A stretch of 64,000 nt of DNA from Glaucostegus cemiculus (Eukaryota). This document shows positions 4,571 to 62,584 of this stretch, one piece after another. The position numbers and the translations under genes were made by a program. The stretch covers positions 3,038,001 to 3,102,000 of the forward strand of contig CDPCPM010000281.1 in the NCBI GenBank assembly GCA_976551045.1. The letters run 5' to 3'. The notes below the pieces were generated by a model that was not told the origin of the DNA, ran no database searches, and saw only the letters and a program-made list of their open reading frames with translations. Positions within the stretch are counted from its first letter, which is position 1. Every line of letters starts with the position of its first letter.

Positions 4571-4965
4571 TTACCAGACGGCTGCCTCATTCATTTCCGG
4601 AGGCGGGTGTGACAAATGGTTGGTGTATCCCCCATTCGTGAGAGAGAAGGACGGGCTGGGACCCGGGCCGAACACGTCCGCCGCCATCGTGTGCATTGAC
4701 GGTCCTGTTAGCCCCGGCTCTGGGCTGGGAGAGTCCCCGTGTGAGTGAGAGATCATGTCGGTAAACCTCTGGCCGTCGCCTGGTCCCGGAAGATTGCTCG
4801 GGTGGTGGCCGGGCAGTGGATGCTCGAGTCCGCCGAGTGGGGTCGCCCCAGGCCCGGAGGAGGGCACAAATCCCAGATCCACCGGAGTCTGAGCTTGAGA
4901 TGAGGGAGGACCTTGAGGGAAGAAATCGTAATTGCTTCCAGGGCCGTAATACTCAGTCTGATAAT
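4571..4965 (-). CDS. LHX1: LHX1 coding exon 5 (C-terminal region, stop TAA)
   Basis: Acceptor ccacag|AT, phase 1, 395 nt. Encodes [31 protein letters not shown]...[12 protein letters not shown], the LHX1-type C-terminus. Confidence 0.96.
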
Positions 4966-7900
4966 CTGTGGAGGCAAAAACACGAACAAATAAAGCTACA
5001 TATGTAACATTAGGCAATCTTACACATTGCGGTTGCAAGACTTCAAGTACATATAAACCCCAGAATTAGTAAATTCCGTAAACAGATATTAGGCTTTCTC
5101 GGTAAGTATTAACAAAGCGTTGATCAAAAGCAAAACGTGAGAAAAGAGAAATCATTTTGGAAGCATAATGGAATTATACAAAATTCCTTAAAACTTAACG
5201 TGATAAAGTATGAAATGTCTAACTTGGGCTTGCATTGCGAATACATTAGAACTGAAATCGGTGATTTTGGTTTAACTCCTTTCCACATTCGCTTAGTGTC
5301 AAATGGAAGCAGCTCCAAATATAATTGGCCCTTAAATATACTAAACCCCAACCTAGTTAATCCGCTTCCAAGACACAGATAGGTTTACAATTTGATTTAA
5401 AGATTCAACCAATAGAAAGCCTTGGGCATTTATACCCAAATTATTTCATTTCATTGTTATTCTTTGTAAACCACTCAGATTGATCTGCGGTCAACATGAA
5501 ATCTGTGACCAGGAACTCAATCTTCACATATCTCTGGGATCCACAGAGTCCTGTGTTGAGATCTGTAGCAATGTGAAATAAATCGGGACCAACGTCCGAA
5601 GAGACCTAACTGTATTAAAAAACCCTTCCAATTCAATAATGTACAATTATATTCAAACAAAATCAAATATTTGCAAAATTATGGATATGTTAATTCTTGG
5701 CGGCTAAAACATTTATTAAATTCTTTCACAGCTATGGAACAGACATCAAGAACAGTTTCTTTTTTTGTGTGGGGGTACACTTAATTATTTTCTCTTTTTG
5801 CTGGTGCCCCTTGTATTCTAGCAACCCGAAAACGGCGGATCAGAATCATTCTGAATTCAGGATGGAACGCGCAAAGTGCAAGGGAAACACAAACCATGTT
5901 TTTGTTCTAATTTATACCCTATTTGTAAATCAGATTGACATCTTTTTCTCCCTCTAAAGATTTCATTTCTGTAAGTGAAATTGAAGCAGATGTGATTGCA
6001 AACAAACGCTTGGGAAACTATTCTGTGTTATTAATCCTTATCACACAGAAGGTCTGGCGCAGCAGGGACCCACTTTTTGAATAATGCTCACTCATTTTAC
6101 ACAATCGCAACCGCTCTCACAAAAACACCACTCAACTAGTCATTTTAGAGCATTCGGCAAATAACAACCTGCCACGTTAGAATCGTAGCTTGAAAAATAT
6201 TGTAAAATAGTTTATTATTCTGAACCGAGTTTTAAGTCTGCACGCGAAATTGTTAGTTGCACGATTCAGTAAAAGTGTTTTGAAAGTAGTTTTCTATCTA
6301 AATGCTTCACAGGTACTAATGTCATTTCGCATAATTCTAAAATCCTGGCATTTAAAAACAATACTTCATTTACCAATAATAATACTTCCCCAAATCGTAA
6401 TGAGATTTTTTTTAAAAAAGCAGTTAGTACGGAGTTAAGTGTTAAGGATTCAGTCAGTCCCTTTGACAAGTGTTCTGAAATTCATCCGGATCTGCTTTTT
6501 TTTCCCCCGTAAAATGCATTTTTGTTTGCTTTTCAGCTACGGCACTCTGCCTCCGACTAATTCCTTTCTCCAATTCAGCCGGAATGCCTGTTAATTTACA
6601 TAAGTAAATGAAATGGAGAATATGCGTACTAACATTGGCCACCTCGACTAAGCTAAAAGATGAATGAAAATATTCCTGGGACTTTAAAATCAGCCAATAG
6701 AATTATTGAAAACTTAAGTGCGCTCATGTCCGAACTCATTTTAATTTCAAATTTGTTGTTTCAGTGTGAGATGGAACATAGGGGGATCCCTGCCAGTTGG
6801 TCCGATTGTCGCTGCGTTTAAAATAGCGTTTTAAAAATGTTTTCTTTTTAAGGTACTTGAGAGACAAACCTAACAGCAATTAACAGCCCAGAACAATCCA
6901 ATGTGAATTTAAAAAATCATCTTGCCAATAGTGCATATTTAAAGAATGCTTAAAGCAAAAAAAATGCTGTTTTTAAAATAATTATACATTATATTATTCC
7001 TGTGAAATTAATATTAAAATGCAAAATTGTGGCTTAAGTATAAACGTTTTTATTTGAGTGGGTTAAAGGAATGTGGTTGCAACATTTACGCTTCGTGCTA
7101 CGGTCTTGTTCGAACCTCCTACTTATGCTGTACATTCACGCCATATTAATTAACCCCATCCCCTCCTGCGTGCTTATTGTCTTTCCATGTTCTCGCCATC
7201 AAATAACAGCGAGTCTGCTGTTTACAATCTACTGGAAGCCCCACCAGTATGTCACTAAACACAGACACGGAAACTTTCTAAACAACAAAGTTGACAAATG
7301 TTGTCCCAACCGAGTTGTACCGGCGAGATCTTTTCGACATCTCGGTAAATATATAAAATAATAACATTTATAACGTGTTCACTCTAATATACCTAAAATA
7401 TCAATACTATAAATAACATAATTCAGATACAAACAAATCCCAGACCCTATTCTAACTGTGCACTGCTCTGAATAGAATCGAGCCATTATAATTCAAACAG
7501 GAGCAGCTACATCAGGTAAGTGTTTTATTAATAGGCATTATAATTAAAAGGTAAGTATTTATACTATTGTATTACTTTTCCCGTGACGAAATGGTTAAAG
7601 TTAAAATAAGAAAATATATAATACATAATATATAGCAGTATAACAAGTAATACATTTCCATTTTTTTCAAAATAGTTATTTTAAAAATGCGATGTTCTTT
7701 AACTTCATGGCATTCTCTACTTTGGCATGCTCTCCAAAGTCTCTATTGAAAAATAAAATCTACAGTTAAAACCAACTTAACATTACCTAGTTTTAATAGG
7801 AATACTGGAAACCTTTAAACCTATTTTTAGAACTTGTGTATCATTAGTAACCCCAATCCTATGGGAATACATCATTCTCCCGTTCTCTGGGTCTTTTTTT

Positions 7901-8156
7901 ATACAAACTTATGTGCATATGGGAACATATGGTGTGATTATTTCAGATCTTTTTGTATATTCCCGTGGTTATCCTAAGCGGGCCATTTATTGTAGACACT
8001 ACTTTTGGAGGTTTCCTGTATCTCAATGGGATATTGTGCTGCTTAGTTGATTCTGTACATGAAACTGATCTGACATTGACAAGTAGATGGTTGAGAGAAA
8101 AGATATACTTTAGCCTTAAAATAGCACGGAGAGTCTCTTCGTATAATCAGTGATTG

Positions 8157-8178
8157 AATAAGTCAATAATAAGTCAAT
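8157..8178. repeat. 11-bp tandem duplication (aataagtcaat)x2
   Basis: Directly visible in LHX1 intron 4. Confidence 0.85.
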
Positions 8179-8321
8179 AAATGGCTAACTTCATACTGTA
8201 TTTCAATTGTCCGTCAATACATGACTGTAAAACTGAATTTGCAGCCTCTTTCTCATTAAATAAGTAATCAGTTTTTAAGCACATCCTGGGGAGTGTTTAA
8301 CAGAAATGAATTGGGACTTAC

Positions 8322-8487
8322 CCCCGTAGTAATTGAAAGGGCCGTTTCCCATCATGTCAGCCCCGTCGAGGCGATCTCCCAGGGGTCTCATCCGTCTGGG
8401 GCTGCGGAAAAACGCGTGTCTACGAGCCCCTAAAGCACTCAGCTGCTTCATCCGCCTCTCCTTGGACCTCCTGTTCTGGAACCAGAC
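8322..8487 (-). CDS. LHX1: LHX1 coding exon 4 (homeodomain helix 3 and downstream)
   Basis: Acceptor ctccag|GTC and donor G|GTAAGT, 166 nt. Encodes [40 protein letters not shown]...YYG. Confidence 0.97.
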
Positions 8488-10285
8488 CTGGAGCACAAAG
8501 CAGCCACGAGAATCCTTTTATTTCGACAATCCTGAGTTAATATTAAACCATACTTAACAACGTAAACACTAGCCTTCCAATCCCATAGTTTAGAATTAAG
8601 GCAAACCTGAAGCACATAAAAGCTTTGCTTTAACTACACTGCAGCATTAATCTCAAACCAGTCTTGAAACGCAGGTTGCTGATGTTTGCATCATCCTGTT
8701 TCATAAGACGAAGAAAAGCCAGAAACCTTGCCCAGAATTAAACATTAAAACGCATCAACAACAGTCTTGCCAAGTCTCTCAATGACGTCCAATCGATTCC
8801 TGATTCTTAGAATACCATTCAGCATTTGGAATATGTTTTGGAGTTTAATTATAACTCGACTTCCTTCTGCATCTGCAGAATCAGGAAATATGGTGGAATA
8901 ATTGTCATATCTTGCGAAAATAACATTCGAGAAAGTAAGTAACTCTTAAAATGACAAAAAGGTAAACATTTTTTCACGTTATAAAATTGAAAATAATGGG
9001 CACATTATTGTTCGAATTTTAAGTTTCACAATGTTATAATAAGCAAGCATTTAATAATGCGAAGATTACACTGAAAATGGAATGAATGATTAAAACAGTT
9101 TGTGCAGAAGCGATATGAAATTGAAAAAAAATTACAAGAGTACAACTTGTTTTGTAAGACAGGTGAAGGGTTGTGAAACTGATTCCCGTTGCTCTGTAAG
9201 ATTATAAGTAATTATTGTCCCTGGCCTGGGGCTGGTGCGCTCTTTATTTAACCCAGGTCACCAAAGTGACGGCCTTATCCTTTGGGTAACCTACTTCACA
9301 ACTCTTATTCCACAGTTCGAACAAGTGACGACAGTGTTTCCATTCTGCACTCCCTGTCTGGTGTTACTACCCCATCCCCATTACAGCAGAATCGCGTTTC
9401 TCTCTCTGCTGCCTCAGATCTGGGGCCCTGTTCTCTCCACCCAGTCCAGAGCTGAAGCTGCCGAGCCCATAAAACGCTTAGTTCTTTTCAAGTAGGACCA
9501 CTTTAATTGGGATTGGGGTGGGGGTCTCCATTCTCGCTCTTACGCTCCAATTCGTCAGTTGCCCCACCATCTACTCGGGTATTCCTGTCCACTTTCCCTC
9601 GCACTTTCTATCTGCTAAACAGCGTGGCCTCGGACAGTTTACAGTGCTCTACGTTGCTGGTGGTATCCCGGTGGAGTATTTCTCTTGTTTCCAGCTTGAC
9701 AATTGTTCGCACTGTCCTGACCACAACACAACTACAACCGCCCTCTTTACTTCTATTTGCTTGGACCCGGCTTGACCTCTCGGGTGCAGACTTGTGAGTC
9801 CTCTCGGCTTCCCGTGTTCATTTCTATCATATTTTACCCGAATAAGGAGGTCTGTTTACCTAGCTTTTCTTATTTAGCCTCGTTTCTTGTGTTATATACT
9901 TTGTATACGTTTCTCTACTGCGACGTAATCTATGGTAATCTATCTTTTTTTGTTACAAGAAACCTCTCGGAGGATTTATCCAGACCCAATAGTAGCCACA
10001 AGCAGCTTCCGCTGGTAATCCGCTGGGAGTTCGCCATCTACCCACTTGTCATGTTTGGATGGCTTCCCCGATTTAAGTGTTCTTTATTACTATTTCTCAT
10101 TTCCAAATATCCTTACCCTCATCTCCTGAAGCACATTTCCGTTTAAACACTCAAACGCTTCTCCGTAAGTTTTATATTGACCCTAAATAGTTGTCCCTCC
10201 CCCCTTCACCCCCTCCGAGCCACCCCGACCACCACTCCGTGCTTATGTTGAAATTCGCACCCTCGGTTCCGGATGGCTCGCCTAC

Positions 10286-10563
10286 CTGTATAACCCTCAT
10301 GTTTAGCCCGGTTTCCTGAGCCAGTTGCTCTCGGATGTGCCTCGTGGGTTTGGGGGTGGCTGCAAAAGCCGCTTTGAGAGTTTCCAGCTGTTTTGCTTTG
10401 ATGGTTGTGCGGGGTCCTCGGCGCTTGGCTCCCAGGTTCTGTTCCTCGTTCTCGTTATTGGCAGTCTCTTTATCTGAAATATTGGCGCTTTCTGAGTCCT
10501 TTGTGTCATCTTGTAAATGATCTTGAGAATCCGGTGATAAACTTTGATCGCTACATGCCGTTA
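10286..10563 (-). CDS. LHX1: LHX1 coding exon 3 (linker and most of the homeodomain)
   Basis: Acceptor gtacag|TA and donor CAG|GTAGGC, 278 nt. Encodes [14 protein letters not shown]...[47 protein letters not shown]. Confidence 0.97.
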
Positions 10564-11256
10564 CTGTACAACACACAAAATGACGTGGGATGAAGAATGG
10601 GTTCACATCACGTAAATAACCGATTTAACGATGATAATCACCGAGATTTTATTAATAATTAATATATAGCCCCTTTGGAGCGCCGCTTTACTGCATTTTA
10701 ACACGTTAAAATGAAATATTTACCAACGCCCCAGCTTTAGATGACATGATTTTAAATTAACTAACTGTCCGAATTAATCTTCCCCAAAGCGTATCATTCG
10801 TACGTTGTGGTTATATTAAAATGAAAATGCAAAAACAAAAAAGCACGGGAAAAAAAAAGTTTAGACGTCTAATCCGGAACAATGGACATACAGAGTAGTG
10901 TCACTTAAAAGCTACATTAAAAAAATGTACATTTCGCTACTCGCCATAATGCATAAATTAGTAAATGGTGTTTAAATCACCAGTAAATAACTGCTAAAAT
11001 GGACAGCAGTCCGCGTTGAGGGCGAGATGGGTCTTAAAACCATATCGCTGTGTCTGCTAACCATTGAAATAATATATAACACATTGTTTCGTAAAGTATT
11101 CAATTTGTTAAAACACCCGAGACGAGGTAACAGTAAAGCTATAAGTTATTGATCAACAATATTAGAGTAAACAGTTACAGGGCCACACTGTCACCCAGCT
11201 TCCTAATGAGCATAAATAAATATACACATATAAATACAATGAGGATTTGGCCTTAC

Positions 11257-11480
11257 GTGACAGCGAACCGTTTTCTTTCGAATTATTGCTGTTTAAAAAA
11301 TCGTCTTTGCAAACAAATTTGTTTTCATCGATGATGTAGAGCTCTTCTCCGGTGGAAAGTTGTTTGTTGCATATCATACAAGTAAAACAGTTCAGATGAA
11401 AGACTTTGCTCCTCGCTCTCCTCACCAGATCGCTCGGGGAGATACCCTGATAGCAGCCGGCACACTTGGTACCAAAACGA
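11257..11480 (-). CDS. LHX1: LHX1 coding exon 2 (LIM domain 2)
   Basis: Acceptor tttcag|T and donor C|GTAAGG, 224 nt. Encodes [61 protein letters not shown]. Confidence 0.97.
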
Positions 11481-13596
11481 CTGAAAGCACCAACAGTAGG
11501 GGGAAAATGGTCAAAGGAATTCTTAATTCTGTTTAGTATATTTACAGTTAACTGCATGATACTAATCGCGTAGAACGACGTTAATTTACATTCATGGTGG
11601 ATGGATTATTGTTAATATTGCACTTGTCTTGCTCCAAAGTGTCCAGGGGCGTACAAACGGAAGAACTATAGACGTAAAAATGTCGCCTATATTTGTATAG
11701 ATCTGCGTTATCAAGCAACCGAGACCAGATTAAATCGGGACCGACACATCGGCGTGTGACAGATTGATCAGTGGACTATTACATTTAGAAAATCGACTGA
11801 AAATGAGCGCAAACAATTTATGAGAAATCCATGTCAGCAAACTGGCCAAAAGTGACAGAATGTTATGTGGGATGTCTCACAATCAACCAGATTGACACTG
11901 TCGTTCGGCTCGGAGCGTGTACTTCACAATGCGGCTGATTTTCCGTCTTATTCACATTAACCAAGGCGATATATTATGTTTTGACTCTATTTCAATTCAA
12001 TGTACACAAACTTTATTAAAAGCGTTGGTAGCAATTTATGTAAAATAAGTTTTTCATTGTCGGCAAAATTAAAACCATTCGAGTACGCTCTATTCTAATC
12101 AGAATGCATGTATGTATACGGCCAGCTAAAGCCTAACTTAGTCAATATCGATTTCAACATACATAAAAAAAGTGCTCGTTAAAATTACAGGTATTTTTCT
12201 GTTTCCCTCTTAAAATATTTCGGTACAATGTTTATCTTTAGTGTACTTCTTGATCAAGACAGTGTTTTTACGAAATTGTATAACAGGTGAGCATTAACCA
12301 TTCAACGCTGTGCAAGTTTATCGACATTTTAAAAGCAAGGGAAAGGCAAACTCGTTTTATTCGAGGCAAAGAGCTGCAAGTGAGAAATGTGTTTTTAATA
12401 TAGTATGAAGCATGTCGTGCATAAACTAAAACAATATTCTACTGAAAACGACATTTTTAAAAGAATCTCATTTTCATGCTGGGTGTAAAATTCATTGGAT
12501 TAATAAATGTTACGTCATTTACAGGTGACGGCAGATTGAAATGATGATGGCGTATGATCCCGGAGGAGGAAGGAGATTTCAGGAGTGCCTTATTAGAAAG
12601 GTCTTCAAACTTGACATTAAACCATTCATTAATAATAACTGAGGGGGTGGTTGGTTCAATCAATTGTTCCGGTATATAAGCAATAGGTAAAGGATATGTT
12701 GCTGTCACATTAGCTTCTGCAACTTGAATCAGATTAATACTTTTAAGGGACTAGTACTGTAACAACTTTCTTAGTTGAAGAAAGTGAAATATATTACTTC
12801 AAGAAAAGCGTTATTCGTACATGCCTGCCGCATGGTTGCAACTTACAGTTAAACTGTAAAAAAGTTTGATATAAATAATTGATTCAACAAGAAAGATAGA
12901 AGTAACTCATCGCTAAATTTACTATCAAACTCGGGTTGTACGTTTGGTTACATTTGGTTCATGAGACGGGGGATTACAATTGTGTAGCTATTTGTGCAGT
13001 CTACTTAGGTGATTGCTAACAAAGGTTTGCCCATATGTCCTTTGTCTATGGTTTCCTCTTCAAACACTTTGTTATTCAAAAACACTTATCCCATCGTTAC
13101 CAAAAAAAAAGAAAACACCAAGGACGTAGACAGAGCCGATGGATTTCCTCCAGGATTCGTAGTTATTGATCTTTGCTTTAATTTGCCTCAGCAAAAGAAA
13201 AGTGCGAGCTCTATTTTGTCTTGCTGAATACACATTTTCCGCATTACAAGATCAGCAAAGTTACCGATCGTGGTTGAAACAGACATGTGTAAATATGTTC
13301 ACGCAATTCAGCTGTTTTTACCGTGCAGCAGTACATAGTCATGTGTAGGATTTATGTTGAATCTTTCAAGTTACAATTCCTTTTCCTCGCCTAACCGAAC
13401 GACACATGCTTTATAAATATGAAAGTTATCCAACAGCTAACTATAAGACATAAATTAATTTTATTCACTAAGTACTAACCTAGCGTCTTGGAAAACAGAT
13501 AAAACAACAGCATTTCAGTCTCGGCATAAACTTGAAGCTAACGCAATACGAATATAACATTATGATGATGCCTTGAAGTCATACCATTGCACTTAC

Positions 13597-43699: not shown

Positions 43700-43962
43700 A
43701 ATCATGGATACTGGAAATCTGAAATAAGAACAGAACATGCTCGAAACACTCAGCAGGTTAGGTAGCATCCGTTGAAAGAGAAGCAGGGTTAATGGTTCAG
43801 GTTGAAGACCCTTTGTTGAAGGTCCAAATCCCAATGAAGGGTCTCAGCCCAAAACATCGACTGTTTATTTCCCTCCATAGGTGCTGCCTGACCTGCTGAG
43901 TTCCTCCAGCATTTTGTGTGTGTTGCTCCAGATTCCAGCATCTGCAGAATCTCGTGTCTCTG
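43700..43962. mobile_element. Penelope-type inverted-repeat element with a decayed hammerhead motif
   Basis: A diverged left arm and a well-preserved right arm flank ccaatgaagggtctcagcccaaaacatcgactg. Confidence 0.75.
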
Positions 43963-50231: not shown

Positions 50232-50605
50232 AGAGAAACAAAGGACTGCAGATGCTGGAATCTAGATGAAAACCACTCTGATGCTGGAGGAACTCAGCAA
50301 GCCAGGCAGCATCCGTGGAGAAAAGCAGGCAGGCAGTCAACGTTTTGGGTCAGGACCCTTCTTCAGGACTGAAGATAGGGAAAGGGGAAGCCCAATATAG
50401 AAGAGGGAAAAGCAGAGCAGTGATAGGTGGACAAAAGAGGGGAGGTGGGGTGATAGGTGGGGTGATAGGTAGATGCAGGTAAGAGGTAGTGATAGGCAGG
50501 TGCGGGGGAGGAGGGGAGAGCAGATCCATTGGGGAATGGGTCAAAGGTAAGGAGGATAAAAGGGGGGGGGAGGTAGAAAAAAGAGAGATAGGCTAGGAAA
50601 GGGTA
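50232..50605 (-). mobile_element. Penelope-type element end with hammerhead-like motif and adjacent purine-rich body
   Basis: Family arm at 50232-50340. Minus strand 50371->50334 reads CAGTC-CTGAAGA-A-GGGTCCTGACCC-AAAACGTT-GACTG. gtgatagg repeats follow on the + strand. Confidence 0.75.
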
Positions 50606-50804
50606 GAAAACATCTAAATTATGGTGCATGTGTTGAGTTTTATTATCCCTTGTGGAGGATGAAATATACACCTGGTTCTGCCCTCCTGCACGACACCCTC
50701 ACCGTCAGTTACTGAGAGGCTTAACAGCCATTCCCATTAAATAATTAGGATCCATTATCAGTCTAAAATTAACCTTTTGCTTCAGGTATTCATCTTTGAA
50801 ACAG

Positions 50805-50905
50805 GAACAGCAAACAAGATGCTGAAGGAACTCAACGGGCCAGGCAGCATCTGTGGAGGGAAATGGAGAGGTGACGTTTTGAGTTGAGCCCTTTCATCTG
50901 GACTG
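50805..50905 (-). mobile_element. Penelope-type single arm
   Basis: gatgctgaaggaactcaacgggccaggcagcatctgtggagggaaatgg..gacgttttgagttgagccctttcatctggactg. Confidence 0.7.
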
Positions 50906-51002
50906 CAGAGACTTCATATGCAGACTCATCTCTCCATCTTTGGATCAGCTTTGCTTCACTGAATGAGAGCCCCCTTTCATCTGCTTTTGTTGGGGAAATA
51001 TA

Positions 51003-51208: not shown

Positions 51209-51734
51209 TTGGCCATCTCCACATTCCAAGTGGCTGTAAGGTTTTCTTTTGGCCCTGGATTATTCTTTTCCCTTTGTTAGGGTCTTAAATTCAGGGTAGG
51301 AAAGAGGATCACCCTGAGTTTAGTATTAAATTATTTTGTTGAAGCCAAACATGCGAGAGGTGCAGGAGAATGGAAACTGGGTCTCAGCGTTCTTATTTTG
51401 CAGGGGCAAGTATGGGATCAATGTCCTGCAAATAAAGGACGCTTGAAAAATATCTGCAGAAATTTTGCTTTGTGCTACAGTTAATGTAAAAAAGCTGTAG
51501 TCCACTTAATTAGGGAAGTGATGAGATTAACGCCACTTTTAAGCTCCCTCTGGTGAATCTGGGCAAACCCAGGCCAGTGTGAATTAAACAATGGCTGCTA
51601 CCGAAAGATTTAGCTTAAGAGCGAAATGTTTCATTGGAGCCAGAAAAATCAGGGATGTTGCTCTGATCCCACAGTATCCTAGTGAGTACTGCCCACCTCT
51701 ATTATTAATGATCCATTCTCTCACTCCCTAGTTT

Positions 51735-52699
51735 GATTTAGAGGAAGGCATTGAGAATAGCATTAGCAAGTTTGCTGACGATACAAAGTTGGGTGGGAGT
51801 GCAACAAGTGTAGAGGAAGTAAGGAAAATTCAAAGGGACTTGGATAGGTTGGGTGAATGGGTGGAAACTTGGCAGATGAAGTTTAATGTGGAAAAGTGTG
51901 AGGTTATTCACTTTGGGAACAGGAACGGAAAGGCGAATTATTTTCTGAATGGTGTGGAGCTTGGCAAGGGGGAAAAACAAAGGGATTTAGGAGTATGTGT
52001 GCATCATTCACTGAAAGTGAATGAGCAAGTACAGCAGGCAGTAGCGAAGGCAAATGGAATGTTGGCCTGTATTACAAGGGGAATTGAGTACAAAAGCAAA
52101 GAGATTCTTTTGCATTTGTACAGGGCCCTGGTGAGACCACTGCTGGAGTATTGTGTACAGTTTTGGTCTCCGGGATTAAGGAAGGATATCCTGGCTATAG
52201 AGGGTGTGCAGCGTAGGTTCACAAGGTTAATTCCGGGGATGTCAGGACTGACTTATGCTGAGAGGTTGGAGAGACTGGGTTTGTACACGCTAGAATTGAG
52301 AAGATTAAGAGGGGATCTGACTGAGACTTATAAGATTATTAAAGGTTTGGACAGGATAGAGGTAGGAAGTATGTTCCAGATGTTGGGGAAATCCAGGACC
52401 AGAGGGCATAAGCTAAGAATTAAGGGTATGCCATTTAGGACAGAAGTGAGGAGAAACTTCTTCTCACAAAGGGTGGTAAATCTGTGGAATGCACTGCCTC
52501 AGAGGGCAGTGGAGGCCAATACACTGGGCACTTTCAAGGAAGAGTTAGATAGGTTTCTTATAGATAGGGAAATCAGGGGATATGGGGACAAGGCAGGAAC
52601 AGGTTATTGATCAGCCATGATCTCAAAATGGCGGAGCAGACTCGAAGGGCTGAAAGGTCTACTTCTGCTCCTATTGTCTATTGTCTATTGTCTATTGTC
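51735..52699 (+). mobile_element. CR1 LINE, 5'-truncated, with uninterrupted ORF2 C-terminus (51735-52610), 3' UTR and (CTATTGT)n tail
   Basis: Open frame DLEEGIENSISKFADDTKLGG..IQRDLDRLGEW..WQMKFNVEKCEVIHFG..LYRALVRPLLEYCVQFWSP..LRRLRGDL..FFSQRVVNLWNALP, the classic CR1 RT C-terminus including the FADD motif. Four CTATTGT units at 52671-52698. Confidence 0.95.
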
Positions 52700-53402: not shown

Positions 53403-53617
53403 AAAAACAAACTGCTGGAGGAATTCAATGGGTCAGGCAGCATCTGTGGAGGGAACTGGACAGTCGTCATTTCAGATGGAGATCTTTCAACTGATAGGTC
53501 TCAACCCAAAACATTGACTGTCCATTTCCCTCCACAGATGCTGCCTGACTCGCTGAGTTCCTCCAGCAGCTTGTTTTACTTTACTCCAGATTCCAGTATC
53601 TGGAGTCTCTTGTGTCT
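53403..53617. mobile_element. Penelope-type inverted-repeat element
   Basis: Arms ~53411-53466 and ~53514-53570 are reverse complements around a decayed core ctgataggtctcaacccaaaacattgactg. Confidence 0.75.
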
Positions 53618-53904
53618 AAAACAGTTACAGATTCTTCTCTCTAATTCACTACCCATCTTAGTTATAACCTTGGGAGGACTGTTTATGTTTGGATCTGTTT
53701 CGCCAATGAGAAAGGTGAACCTTTTTTTGTGCATGTCTCAGAGAGCTCCTTCCTCACAGTGACATCACTGGTGATGTTGGTTGGAGATGGTGCATTTAAC
53801 CAACAGATTTATTGAAAGGAGCAAAGGGAAACAGAATAATTTATGAGCAGGGAGATTATGCTGCAATGGTACGCAACACTAGTGACGCCACAGTTTGAGT
53901 ACCA

Positions 53905-59130: not shown

Positions 59131-60433
59131 AACATTGTAGCAGTTTCAGTTACAGAAGCATCTAAACTGAATACAACTAAATATCAAATTCTGCTAAAAA
59201 CCAATTCATGCCAGAAGGCACATCTTTCTCATTTGGCAAGCAGTCACAAACACAACAATTTGAAAATCTGAATATTCAGTGTCCAAGCCCGCTGCTGAAT
59301 TTGACTGTATCATAAATAATATAACTCTTAGCCAGCTGAATAATTTAGTCAGAATACACAGTCAAATTTTATCTTGTTTTCTCAATTAATATCCTCCTGT
59401 TTTAACTCAATGCTAACTGGTCTTACCACCATTATTGCTGAAGAGTATGGTATATTGGTGGGAATGAGTGCAATGTTTGTTCCAGCAATGCTACACTATA
59501 ATGTTGTGGTGATATGTCATGGTGATAAACCTCAAACATGAAGAATACCTTTATCAGTGGTAATTACACAATAAAAGTAGGGCTAACAGATCCATTTCAC
59601 TAATTAACTATGCAGATTGTGTGGAAAGAATTCTTCTGAGTATCTATTAATTGTATTTGTTCAGGTCCACTTACTTCGACACGGTTGTTGTGCTCACACA
59701 CAAGCCAGTCTTGGAATGCTGGATGCAGGATTTGTCAGTGTAGCTAGTTTCACACTGTACTTTGGAGAAACTATTTGCCAAGCAGCAAGCTGGTTAACAT
59801 CTGGTGATCTCGAAGGTGAGCTAATCTTTACATGGACTGTTTAATGACTTTCATTTCCTACTGTAGTTAAGGTAATTGTATCAAACAGAAACAGAGAGAA
59901 AACTTCTACTGTTTGCTTAAGTACTGTATAGCAGCTATACAAAATAAATATTGAATCAGTGTTGTATATGTGTGATATTTTAAAAGTGTTCCATCATGGC
60001 AGACACAAGACCACAATTCAATCATAAAATCATTTAATGATGTTGTACTTAAGGAGGAAATTCAGTCCACTGTGCATAAACTTGTCTCATGAAAGAACAA
60101 TCCATTTATTCACAGCCCTGTGTATTGGAGATCCCCAAATGGTCGGTGAGTAAATAAGCCTGAGACATATAGGGTGATCCCAGGTCTGGTTTCTGATCTT
60201 TATTGAATTGGTAAATTGGTTTATTATTGTCACATGTACCGAGGTACAGTGAAAAACTTTGTTTTGCATGGCATCCTTGCTGTCATACAGATCAATTCAT
60301 TACAACAGTGCATCAAGGTAGTACAAGGGAAAACAATAACAGAATGCAGAAAAAAAATGTTACAGTTACAGAGAAAGTGCAGTGCAGGAAGAGAATAAGG
60401 TGCAAGGCCATAATTAGGCTGATTGTGAGGTCA

Positions 60434-60647
60434 CCATGCACAAAATGCTGGAGGAACTCAGCAAGTCAGGCAGCATCTATGGAGGGAAATAAACAGTTGA
60501 CTTTTCATCAGTCCTGATGAAGGGTCTCGACCCGAAACATCGACTGTCTATTTCCCTCCATAGATGCTGCCTGACCCGCTGAGTTCCTTCAGCATTTTGT
60601 GTATGTTGCTCCAGATTCCAGTATCTGCAGAATCTCTTGTGTCATCA
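60434..60647. mobile_element. Penelope-type inverted-repeat element with 13-bp target-site duplication
   Basis: Arms 60438-60500 and 60540-60602 are reverse complements with few mismatches. Flanked by gattgtgaggtca (60421-60433) and gattgtgaagtca (60648-60660). Confidence 0.8.
60509..60546 (+). ncRNA. Minimal type I hammerhead ribozyme motif
   Basis: CAGTC | CTGATGA | A | GGGTC-TC-GACCC | GAAA | C-ATC | GACTG: stem I CAGTC/GACTG, core boxes CUGAUGA and GAAA, a stem II hairpin, an NUH triplet and a vestigial stem III. Confidence 0.75.
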
Positions 60648-62584
60648 GATTGTGAAGTCAAGAATCAATCTTATCTTACCGGGAGCCATTCAATAGTCTT
60701 ATATCAGTGGGATAGAAGCTGTCTTTGAGCATGGTGGTATGTGCTGTCAGGCTTTTGTATCTTCTGCCTAATGGAGAAGAGAGAATGTCCAGGGTGGGTG
60801 GGGTCTTTGATTATGTAGGCTGCTTGACCAAGCCAGTGGGAAGTGTAGACAGAGTCTATGGAGGGGTGGCTGGTTTCTGTGATGTGCTGAGCTGTGTCCA
60901 CACTCTCTGAAGTTTCTTGTGATCTCGAGCAAAGCAGTTGCCGTACTAAACCGTGATGCACTCATTGGTCTTCGCAGAAAGCACATTTTTTTTGTTCATA
61001 GAGAATTTCAATTGTTTTTGAGCTTTGGGCAGGATCAGGGTTCCATGCCTTCCATTGTGGAATAGCCCATTGACATTCTTCACTTTGCCTTTCACATGAA
61101 TAATGACCACTTGAGTGAAGTATTAGAGGGTTATTGGTGCCTGTAGAACTATATCCCAGAGGAGTCTTCAGGAGAAAGACAAAACAAAATCTATATCTTG
61201 CCAAATATGACACTGAGAGCATTAGGAAAAAGGTTAAAATAGAGCAAAAGCATTTTGGCATCAATGCTTTCTGTAAAACATAGTCCATACCTGCCTCCCT
61301 ATCCAAACATAATTATTTGTTCATCTTTGGATTTCTGCCCTGGTGCGCAGATTTGCTGTGACACTGGTTTTAAAATCATAGCAATAGATGGCCGGCAATT
61401 AGGCTGTGTGTGTGGCTTTTCCACGGAACAGGGAAGGCTGCCATCAGTAAGAGAAAGGGGGTGCTTGAGGTGAAAGGACCCAGGAGACACTGGGCCTGAA
61501 ATCTCATGATGATGATTGATGTAGGCTTTGTACTGACTTCTGACACCTCTGCTGAAAATTAAAAGCCTATTTTGTATGGTAATAACAACACTTCACTTTG
61601 ATATAGCCTCAGTATCTGATACAGGCGTCTAAGAGGCTGCTATTTAGTAGTATTATCTCCTGAGGGAAGCAACCATTTGGTTTGAATGATAGAAAAATGA
61701 TTACAAGCAGATTGTAAAAGCTCAAATGAAAAACACACATTGTATCAGCATTGTACATTATCATTTTTAGATATAGGTGACTTGTTTATTATACCAAAAA
61801 GTAAACATATTATCACACTGTAATGCTTATGAAAACTGGGAAATCAAAGTGGCAGTAAACCAACGACACACTTTACATAAAGTTCATTGACAAATTAACA
61901 TATTGACTCAACTTGATCTAAATCACAGTGATAATCAACATTTTATTTTCCTGAATCACAATGCCAATAGAGATTTCACAATAGTACTAAGCAGCTTAAT
62001 CAGAAGTCCTTTTCCATTATCTGTTTCTCTATCAGAAAAGCCAGGAGAAAATATACTTTCCAGTACAAAAGAAAGCACGGACCAGGCAGTGTGAAGCCTC
62101 TGCATTCCTCTCACTTAAATGGGAAAGAAGAGCTGATTTCAAATTGTGTTGGCAGGTGTTTGTGGTCACTGGTTATCAGTATATAGACTTTGGGAATTCT
62201 ATGCATAAATAATGAAGCGAAAAACTTTAAAAATCACCCAGGGCTGCAAAAAACCTCCACACATTCCACTTCCCATTCAAATGAGCAAATCTTTCTTCAC
62301 AAGACTGGATACAATGGGTATCTCAATGTTCAGTGTCTATTAACTCACCAGGTATCATTTACGGGAAATCAACTGCATTGTATCGTAAACCAGACATCAA
62401 CTGGGCTGGGTTAGACCAACGAAGGGTGTAGGAAAATAATTAAGAGACAACACTTTTGTATTTCTAGGCATTTCTCTAAATCTTTTGCACAATATCTCCT
62501 GCTAGACATTTATCCACCCTTGTCATTGTTATTCAGGAAAATAGAAGTTGATTGTCACTGTGACTATATTTGGCCCAGTCAAAT

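Follow-up and report, generated by a model that had tools for sequence, protein, structure and literature searches.

The inverted repeat near the end of the window (the whole 64,000-nucleotide stretch of Glaucostegus cemiculus DNA analysed here) holds what appears to be a small hammerhead ribozyme, and the locus raises the question of whether this motif is genuine, what sort of element brought it there, and whether it could still cleave. A preliminary description had placed a minimal hammerhead at the centre of a short inverted-repeat mobile element and had taken its AUC triplet for a CpG-decayed GUC. The reading we arrive at, and which we hold to be very probable, is that of a decayed minimal hammerhead from the pseudo-LTR (pLTR) of a Penelope-like element (PLE), likely Neptune, which lies in a fold-back stub and is likely unable to cleave.

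The motif can be laid out base by base, with the 5' strand of stem I at 60509-60513, CUGAUGA at 60514-60520, an extra A at 60521, a stem II of 4 bp that closes a 4-nt loop (60522-60525/60530-60533), GAAA at 60534-60537, C-A-U-C at 60538-60541, and the 3' strand of stem I at 60542-60546; C60541 is hammerhead position 17, with cutting predicted 3' of this base. This layout bears out the boxes, 5-bp stem I, stem II hairpin and extra A described earlier. A descriptor search and the Rfam hammerhead models had both been put forward as checks, and these gave different outcomes. The descriptor (requiring the two boxes, a UH site, and minimum lengths of 4 bp for stem II and 3 bp for stem I) found 60509-60546 as its sole match in the 64-kb window and none in 100 dinucleotide shuffles, and five matches in 1.2 Mb sampled elsewhere in the genome, with none in five shuffles of that sample, while the two boxes without stems were not enriched in the window (nine matches vs 6.1 expected). 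The Rfam models, at E-values up to 10, detected neither the focal copy nor two intact GUC copies. The motif is real and not a chance occurrence. The features of the locus, and of related insertions in the window, are as follows:

60421..60433, + strand: left target-site duplication (TSD), 13 bp
60434..60506, - strand: inverted, tailless second pLTR arm
60509..60646, + strand: sense arm, with the pLTR starting at stem I and a tail of ~40 nt (~60607-60646)
60509..60546, + strand: minimal type I hammerhead motif, A60539 a decayed G (from boxes and stems, descriptor and CpG counts)
60648..60660, + strand: right TSD, 12/13 bases identical
60195..60960, - strand: older, abundant LINE 3'-end copy split by the stub (bounds approximate)
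43827..43961, + strand: solo pLTR and tail of the focal sub-lineage, core decayed
50240..50615, - strand: 3' end of sister family B, with CUGAAGA core, GUU triplet and native pyrimidine-rich 3' UTR
50795..50908, - strand: decayed pLTR of the U4-to-A sub-lineage
53404..53618, strand not assigned: second fold-back pLTR stub of the window

Within the sense arm the ribozyme is at the 5' edge, and not, as had been thought, at the centre of the element. The two arms of the inverted repeat (60432-60506 and 60534-60608) are 88% complementary with a fold z-score of -19, and the only Rfam matches to the fold-back were sub-threshold ones of microRNA type; for annotation purposes, such hairpins look like microRNA precursors to Rfam and escape its hammerhead models. 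The inverted arm has no mirror of stem II, and therefore the minus strand carries no hammerhead. Both flanks of the stub belong to one older repeat, a LINE which we take to be Rex1/Babar-like, and among the fetched loci there were 37 pairings of flank matches within 60 bases, 26 of which overlap by about the length of the duplication (as read off the aligned rows). The target is single in uninterrupted copies of this host repeat, and the 213-bp unit is therefore a true insertion, which on these alignments we place inside the older LINE with a 13-bp target duplication. We note that a further four pLTR arms cluster at 294-684 of the window (an inverted arm, a fold-back pair and an additional tailed arm).

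The sense arm ends 3' at the same position across copies and could be traced to its parent element through longer copies. Fifteen of the best 30 genome matches to the sense arm were taken as extending into a common pyrimidine-rich 3' UTR which ends in stem I, and since these non-inverted copies extend through stem I, this stem is native and was not created by the inversion. One copy (L089) extends to a GIY-YIG-like frame, and a longer homologue of 726 aa (P0001), found with a fragment of the sister-family frame, gave weak Pfam matches to RVT_1 and GIY-YIG, below the gathering cut-offs; Pfam found no match in four degraded genomic ORF fragments. Two loci, L254 and L267, match P0001 across the reverse transcriptase (RT), and also the endonuclease (EN), from residues 29 and 42 onward. 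Each carries a tailless pLTR at its 3' end that is 86–87% identical to the focal arm and an inverted tailed pLTR at its 5' end (85–90% identical), and L254 has a clear TSD; overall, the sense arm is 85–90% identical to the pLTRs of these two ORF-bearing copies. The pLTR is thus found, via P0001, 3' of a frame that has an RT and, at its C-terminus, a GIY-YIG domain, and homologues of the family B 3' end in the window also continue into RT and GIY-YIG sequence. By these alignments the host of the motif is the pLTR of an endonuclease-bearing PLE, and the earlier attribution of the minimal hammerhead to a Penelope pLTR is upheld. A Cx2-5CxxC linker between RT and EN, present in 26 of the 31 loci covering the linker, marks Neptune and Nematis (Craig et al., PMC8557442), and Neptune and Poseidon have been reported in vertebrates (Li et al., bioRxiv 10.64898/2026.07.22.740005). 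The clade is likely to be Neptune, an assignment based on one linker motif, which Nematis also has.

The family is very abundant. In 120 stretches of 10 kb, picked arbitrarily from large contigs and not by a formal random draw, we found 282 pLTR arms in 224 insertions, which extrapolates to ~530,000 remnants in the 2.85-Gb genome (bootstrap 456,000–616,000). The repeat was also present in sequencing runs of 12 organisms from 12 studies, with mostly small shares, and is therefore common to related species. No RNA run was listed among those with the repeat, and when contigs of four runs guessed to be RNA were compared with L267, neither start nor end positions were obtained, nor any splice joint that could be interpreted. 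Among the other arrangements seen, L259 (oriented 1150-2600), L277 and L065 are partial tandems in which pLTR and tail continue into the 5' region of the element, and a frame opened by a conserved ATG 22 nt past the cut site may be where the ORF begins. At L164:5759-5983 and L113:7126-7303, truncated pLTR units are repeated head-to-tail over short stretches, and these are possible seeds of retrozyme-like arrays.

The family-wide data also allowed us to consider the AUC triplet. Among 222 arms, the dinucleotide at positions 15.2-16.2 was CA in 77, TG in 51, CG in 45 and TA in 14, a decay pattern resembling that of neighbouring CpG sites, and in the 29 arms of the focal sub-lineage the counts were CG 11, CA 9 and TG 5. 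Exact copies of the intact GUC 38-mer numbered 117 in the genome and those of the focal AUC 38-mer 41, with none for the reversed controls; the 41 copies fit recurrent CpG decay, and would also fit a small AUC lineage. Compared with the majority of ten intact copies, the focal arm differs at 7/90 positions, all of them transitions and including 60539. On these counts the AUC is a CpG-decayed GUC, as the preliminary description had supposed. The two window copies on which it had drawn (50334-50371 and ~50870-50905) are real pLTR copies; they lie, however, on the minus strand and belong to other sub-lineages, one of the GUU and one of the U4-to-A type, and in both G12 is replaced by A. As a side observation, nine of 100 exact GUC copies listed are on one contig (G000:C172) within 1.6 Mb, possibly because of local enrichment or slow CpG decay.

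Whether the focal copy can cut was considered by folding and by comparison with published minimal hammerheads, which are inactive as monomers, show low activity as dimers, for which a palindrome is required (PMC4209133). When the whole insertion was folded, the stem I pair probability was 0.0 and the ribozyme fold lay 13 kcal/mol above the ensemble, and when the motif or sense arm was folded alone, the pair probabilities of stems I and II were 0.84–1.0; a transcript starting at stem I without the inverted arm would, by the same modelling, still form both stems (pair probabilities 0.84–0.98). The focal 15.1-16.1 word is ACAU, which is non-palindromic (C15.2-A16.2), whereas that of the family ancestor, ACGU, is a palindrome, and the focal copy has no tandem partner. 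The ancestral GUC ribozyme would have cut only as a dimer through the ACGU palindrome, or with protein help. In the focal copy this palindrome has been lost, a tandem partner is missing, and stem I is predicted to be sequestered by the hairpin, so that we consider it likely unable to cut. Just 16/144 core-spanning arms of the family keep both boxes and a UH site, and 4/144 also C15.2-G16.2. That the focal copy might nevertheless be an active ribozyme or one used by the host, either through trans-cleavage with other copies or on a transcript upstream of a LIM-homeobox gene, seems highly improbable to us: it is among the best-kept copies, given the five descriptor matches in 1.2 Mb, both its boxes are intact, and one coelacanth row of the published alignment also reads C-A-U-C (PMC4209133 supplement), but its seven transitions are as in neutral decay, and the broken palindrome and the weak or absent activity of published minimal hammerheads (PMC4209133) count against it; the analysis gave no sign of its conservation or transcription.

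Lineages were defined by clustering 178 arms on the sequence 3' of the ribozyme. Covariation in the stems had been proposed as a check, and among the 56 sampled copies that are free of gaps and reach across the motif and its 3' flank no measure rose above shuffles; one compensatory change was found between lineages, with U-A replacing C-G at the first stem I pair of an old lineage with a GUU triplet (U in 24/28, A in 18/28), and this swap is one evolutionary event. A U-G wobble is frequent in stem II of the focal lineage. Position 9 is C in one lineage (19/22) and position 4 is A in a portion of another (16/36), and one ORF-bearing copy was observed with an altered core of each type (L263 and L265). 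These A9-to-C and U4-to-A lineages also multiplied. Perreault et al. (PMC3088659) state that hammerhead activity suffers much from most changes of the core. It might be argued from the lack of copy-level covariation, from the spread of the altered cores, and from there being just three stem I pairs common to all lineages, that the sequence is only hammerhead-like, its boxes having arisen through the inversion junction or through overlapping constraints of promoter, splicing or coding. We find this extremely improbable, as stem I is native in non-inverted copies, the old lineage shows the U-A for C-G exchange, and the family form agrees with the published consensus in every listed feature (PMC4209133).

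The fold-back arrangement recurs in the sample as 47 distinct head-to-head pairs, in 39 of which one arm is tailed, in seven neither and in one both. The arm 3' ends are bimodal, ~45 nt apart, and 19/47 pairs have a TSD score of at least 8 compared to 3.5% of mismatched controls. The junctions fall into 39 classes (5-nt bins), none with more than three members, and the hairpins therefore appear to have been built afresh with each insertion, which argues against the distinct short inverted-repeat mobile element proposed at the outset. The layout, in which a tailed and a tailless arm meet head to head, is already published, as PLE insertions with an inverted pLTR, a one-sided 30–40 bp tail and a TSD have been described (PMC3846280, PMC8557442 and PMC2377424). 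A PLE protein has been found to nick and extend both strands, with priming starting at two internal sites bracketing the tail and with uncleaved RNA used, and the hammerhead of that element cuts only with the protein present (Frangieh et al. 2024, PMC11167929). The simplest reading of the stub is that of two short cDNAs joined head to head, in which the element protein would nick both target strands and two cDNAs would be primed on uncleaved RNA, one at the tail end and the other at an internal start ~40 nt upstream; both would halt at or near the ribozyme and then join via microhomology. Fold-back self-priming, as proposed in PMC3846280, would have the same outcome in sequence. We note that the junction word CAG-TC-CTG (60511-60516 of the window, and in the family) is a micro-palindrome, and two cDNAs ending there could anneal to one another, which could contribute to the hot spot of junctions among paired arms.

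An alternative is that the fold-back forms a mini-element of its own, non-autonomous and MITE-, SINE- or retrozyme-like, which is copied whole from a palindromic master and whose RNA the hammerhead processes. Many copies do agree in overall size and in both outer ends, four of the best 30 matches (L009, L018, L019 and L023) share a nearly identical full junction, and the U4-to-A lineage is mostly short, with 15/19 arms ending at the start of stem I. We regard it as improbable all the same, because the number of junction classes leaves no fixed master structure, the tail may be on either arm and ORF-bearing copies have the same inverted tailed pLTR as a cap, suppression of the ribozyme fold is predicted inside the hairpin, and just 1/97 arms ends near the cleavage site. 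This last count, of ends at +24..+32, also led us to reject a cleaved-RNA template as the main route; the junctions of L068 and L118 fall on the cut site, but a 5-nt stem I microhomology explains both too. A spliced template, suggested by the pyrimidine tract and the CAG before the core, was considered because a Drosophila intron ends at helix I (PMC4209133), and is not favoured as many short copies keep the CAG; these have no common upstream exon sequence.

The 5' ends of copies were analysed for the 97/282 arms that are well fitted by extended profiles, and they pile up at the start of stem I. For 32 arms the end lies within -9..0 of C3, a rate of 0.065 per base at risk, compared to 17 within -189..-10 (0.004 per base, p = 1e-19), one of which is within -29..-10; the excess is ~15-fold and absent at the cleavage site. 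A profile artefact could be rejected, as 25/26 unpaired arms ending near stem I have non-native DNA upstream, several with an adjacent TSD. The excess is kept by lineages with the canonical core (12 ends in 323 bases vs 12 in 3,359, p = 2e-7), and the U4-to-A lineage mentioned above shows it most strongly. In all ten exact GUC copies that were retrieved, the native sequence goes on upstream, and the pile-up may therefore be weaker in the youngest lineage. Judged from the copies, it would fit uncleaved templates starting at stem I. The word at the start of stem I resembles an initiator. Our preferred reading of the pile-up is a defined RNA 5' end at this word, since PLE promoters are located in the pLTR (PMC2377424 and PMC6765202). 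The fuller proposal is more tentative, and we would give it slightly less than an even chance: the RNA would start at the first bases of stem I, the stubs would come from priming at two internal sites with run-off at this end, and the hammerhead would be dispensable, as the U4-to-A and A9-to-C lineages spread and sit on the ORF-bearing L265 and L263.

If this were true, the genome would be a natural read-out of the Penelope cycle, with uncleaved templates, two-strand priming and a dispensable ribozyme, and if the pile-up does mark the RNA start, it would link the in vitro picture of the Anolis element to events in a genome. We found no report in the literature of 5' ends of PLE copies piling up at the hammerhead. 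The focal copy is no more than ordinary debris. It is the family that provides natural data in quantity on what PLE hammerheads do, and the clues lie at this level, in insertion ends without a trace of cleavage, the pile-up at the 5' edge of the ribozyme, and the spread of altered cores.

Comparison with known systems places the focal copy as a decayed, likely inert member of a known pairing of ribozyme and retroelement. It keeps the CUGANGA and GAAA boxes, the extra base after A9 and the G10.1-C11.1 pair of the published minimal hammerheads, and shares with them the lack of helix III and the short helix I, as well as the U-rich flank, pLTR location, mass dispersal of single motifs and, in the family, the palindromic 15.1-16.1 word (PMC4209133). 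It differs from them in its stem II of just 4 bp and lost palindrome, and the family in having whole sub-lineages with A9-to-C or U4-to-A cores; the examined part of the published alignment (PMC4209133 supplement) has no entries from cartilaginous fish. The published inverted-pLTR insertions (PMC3846280, PMC8557442 and PMC2377424) share the head-to-head pLTR, one-arm tail and TSD around the whole unit, with partial tandems elsewhere (here L259 and L277), whereas both arms here are reduced to the pLTR with no ORF, and TSDs are 10–18 bp compared to 8–10 bp in the rotifer PLE paper. The Poseidon element PAc of Anolis (PMC11167929) also has two classes of 3' end ~45 nt apart and copies which retain the scissile bond, as expected of uncleaved templates; it differs in clade (the linker here is of Neptune/Nematis type) and in having an ORF from stem II, while the first ATG frame of our family closes inside the pLTR. 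Non-LTR retrozymes are likewise short, non-coding and PLE-derived with a type I hammerhead, and have been found in one chondrichthyan genome examined (Li et al., bioRxiv 10.64898/2026.07.22.740005), but they form tandem head-to-tail arrays, defined by at least two tandem units with full hammerheads, whereas the focal insertion consists of one head-to-head unit flanked by a TSD. The examined passages of bioRxiv 2025.06.08.657570 make no mention of Penelope. A search of the literature found no report on hammerheads in PLEs of sharks or rays, and the family may already carry a name in repeat databases.

Three frames elsewhere in the window are worth recording. Exons of a LIM-homeobox gene (with Pfam matches to LIM and homeodomain) lie at 4571-11605 on the minus strand, presumably of an Lhx1-like gene, and the stub is ~49 kb upstream of the detected LIM exon. 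A short frame at ~1200-1290, also on the minus strand, begins MAASIAQQLEELLNP and in our view resembles the first exon of AATF, which we take to be the usual neighbour of Lhx1. The third, at 51732-52610 on the plus strand, is a 292-aa frame, still free of stops, that covers the C-terminal part of a reverse transcriptase (weak RVT_1 match) from a LINE which we presume to be CR1-like.
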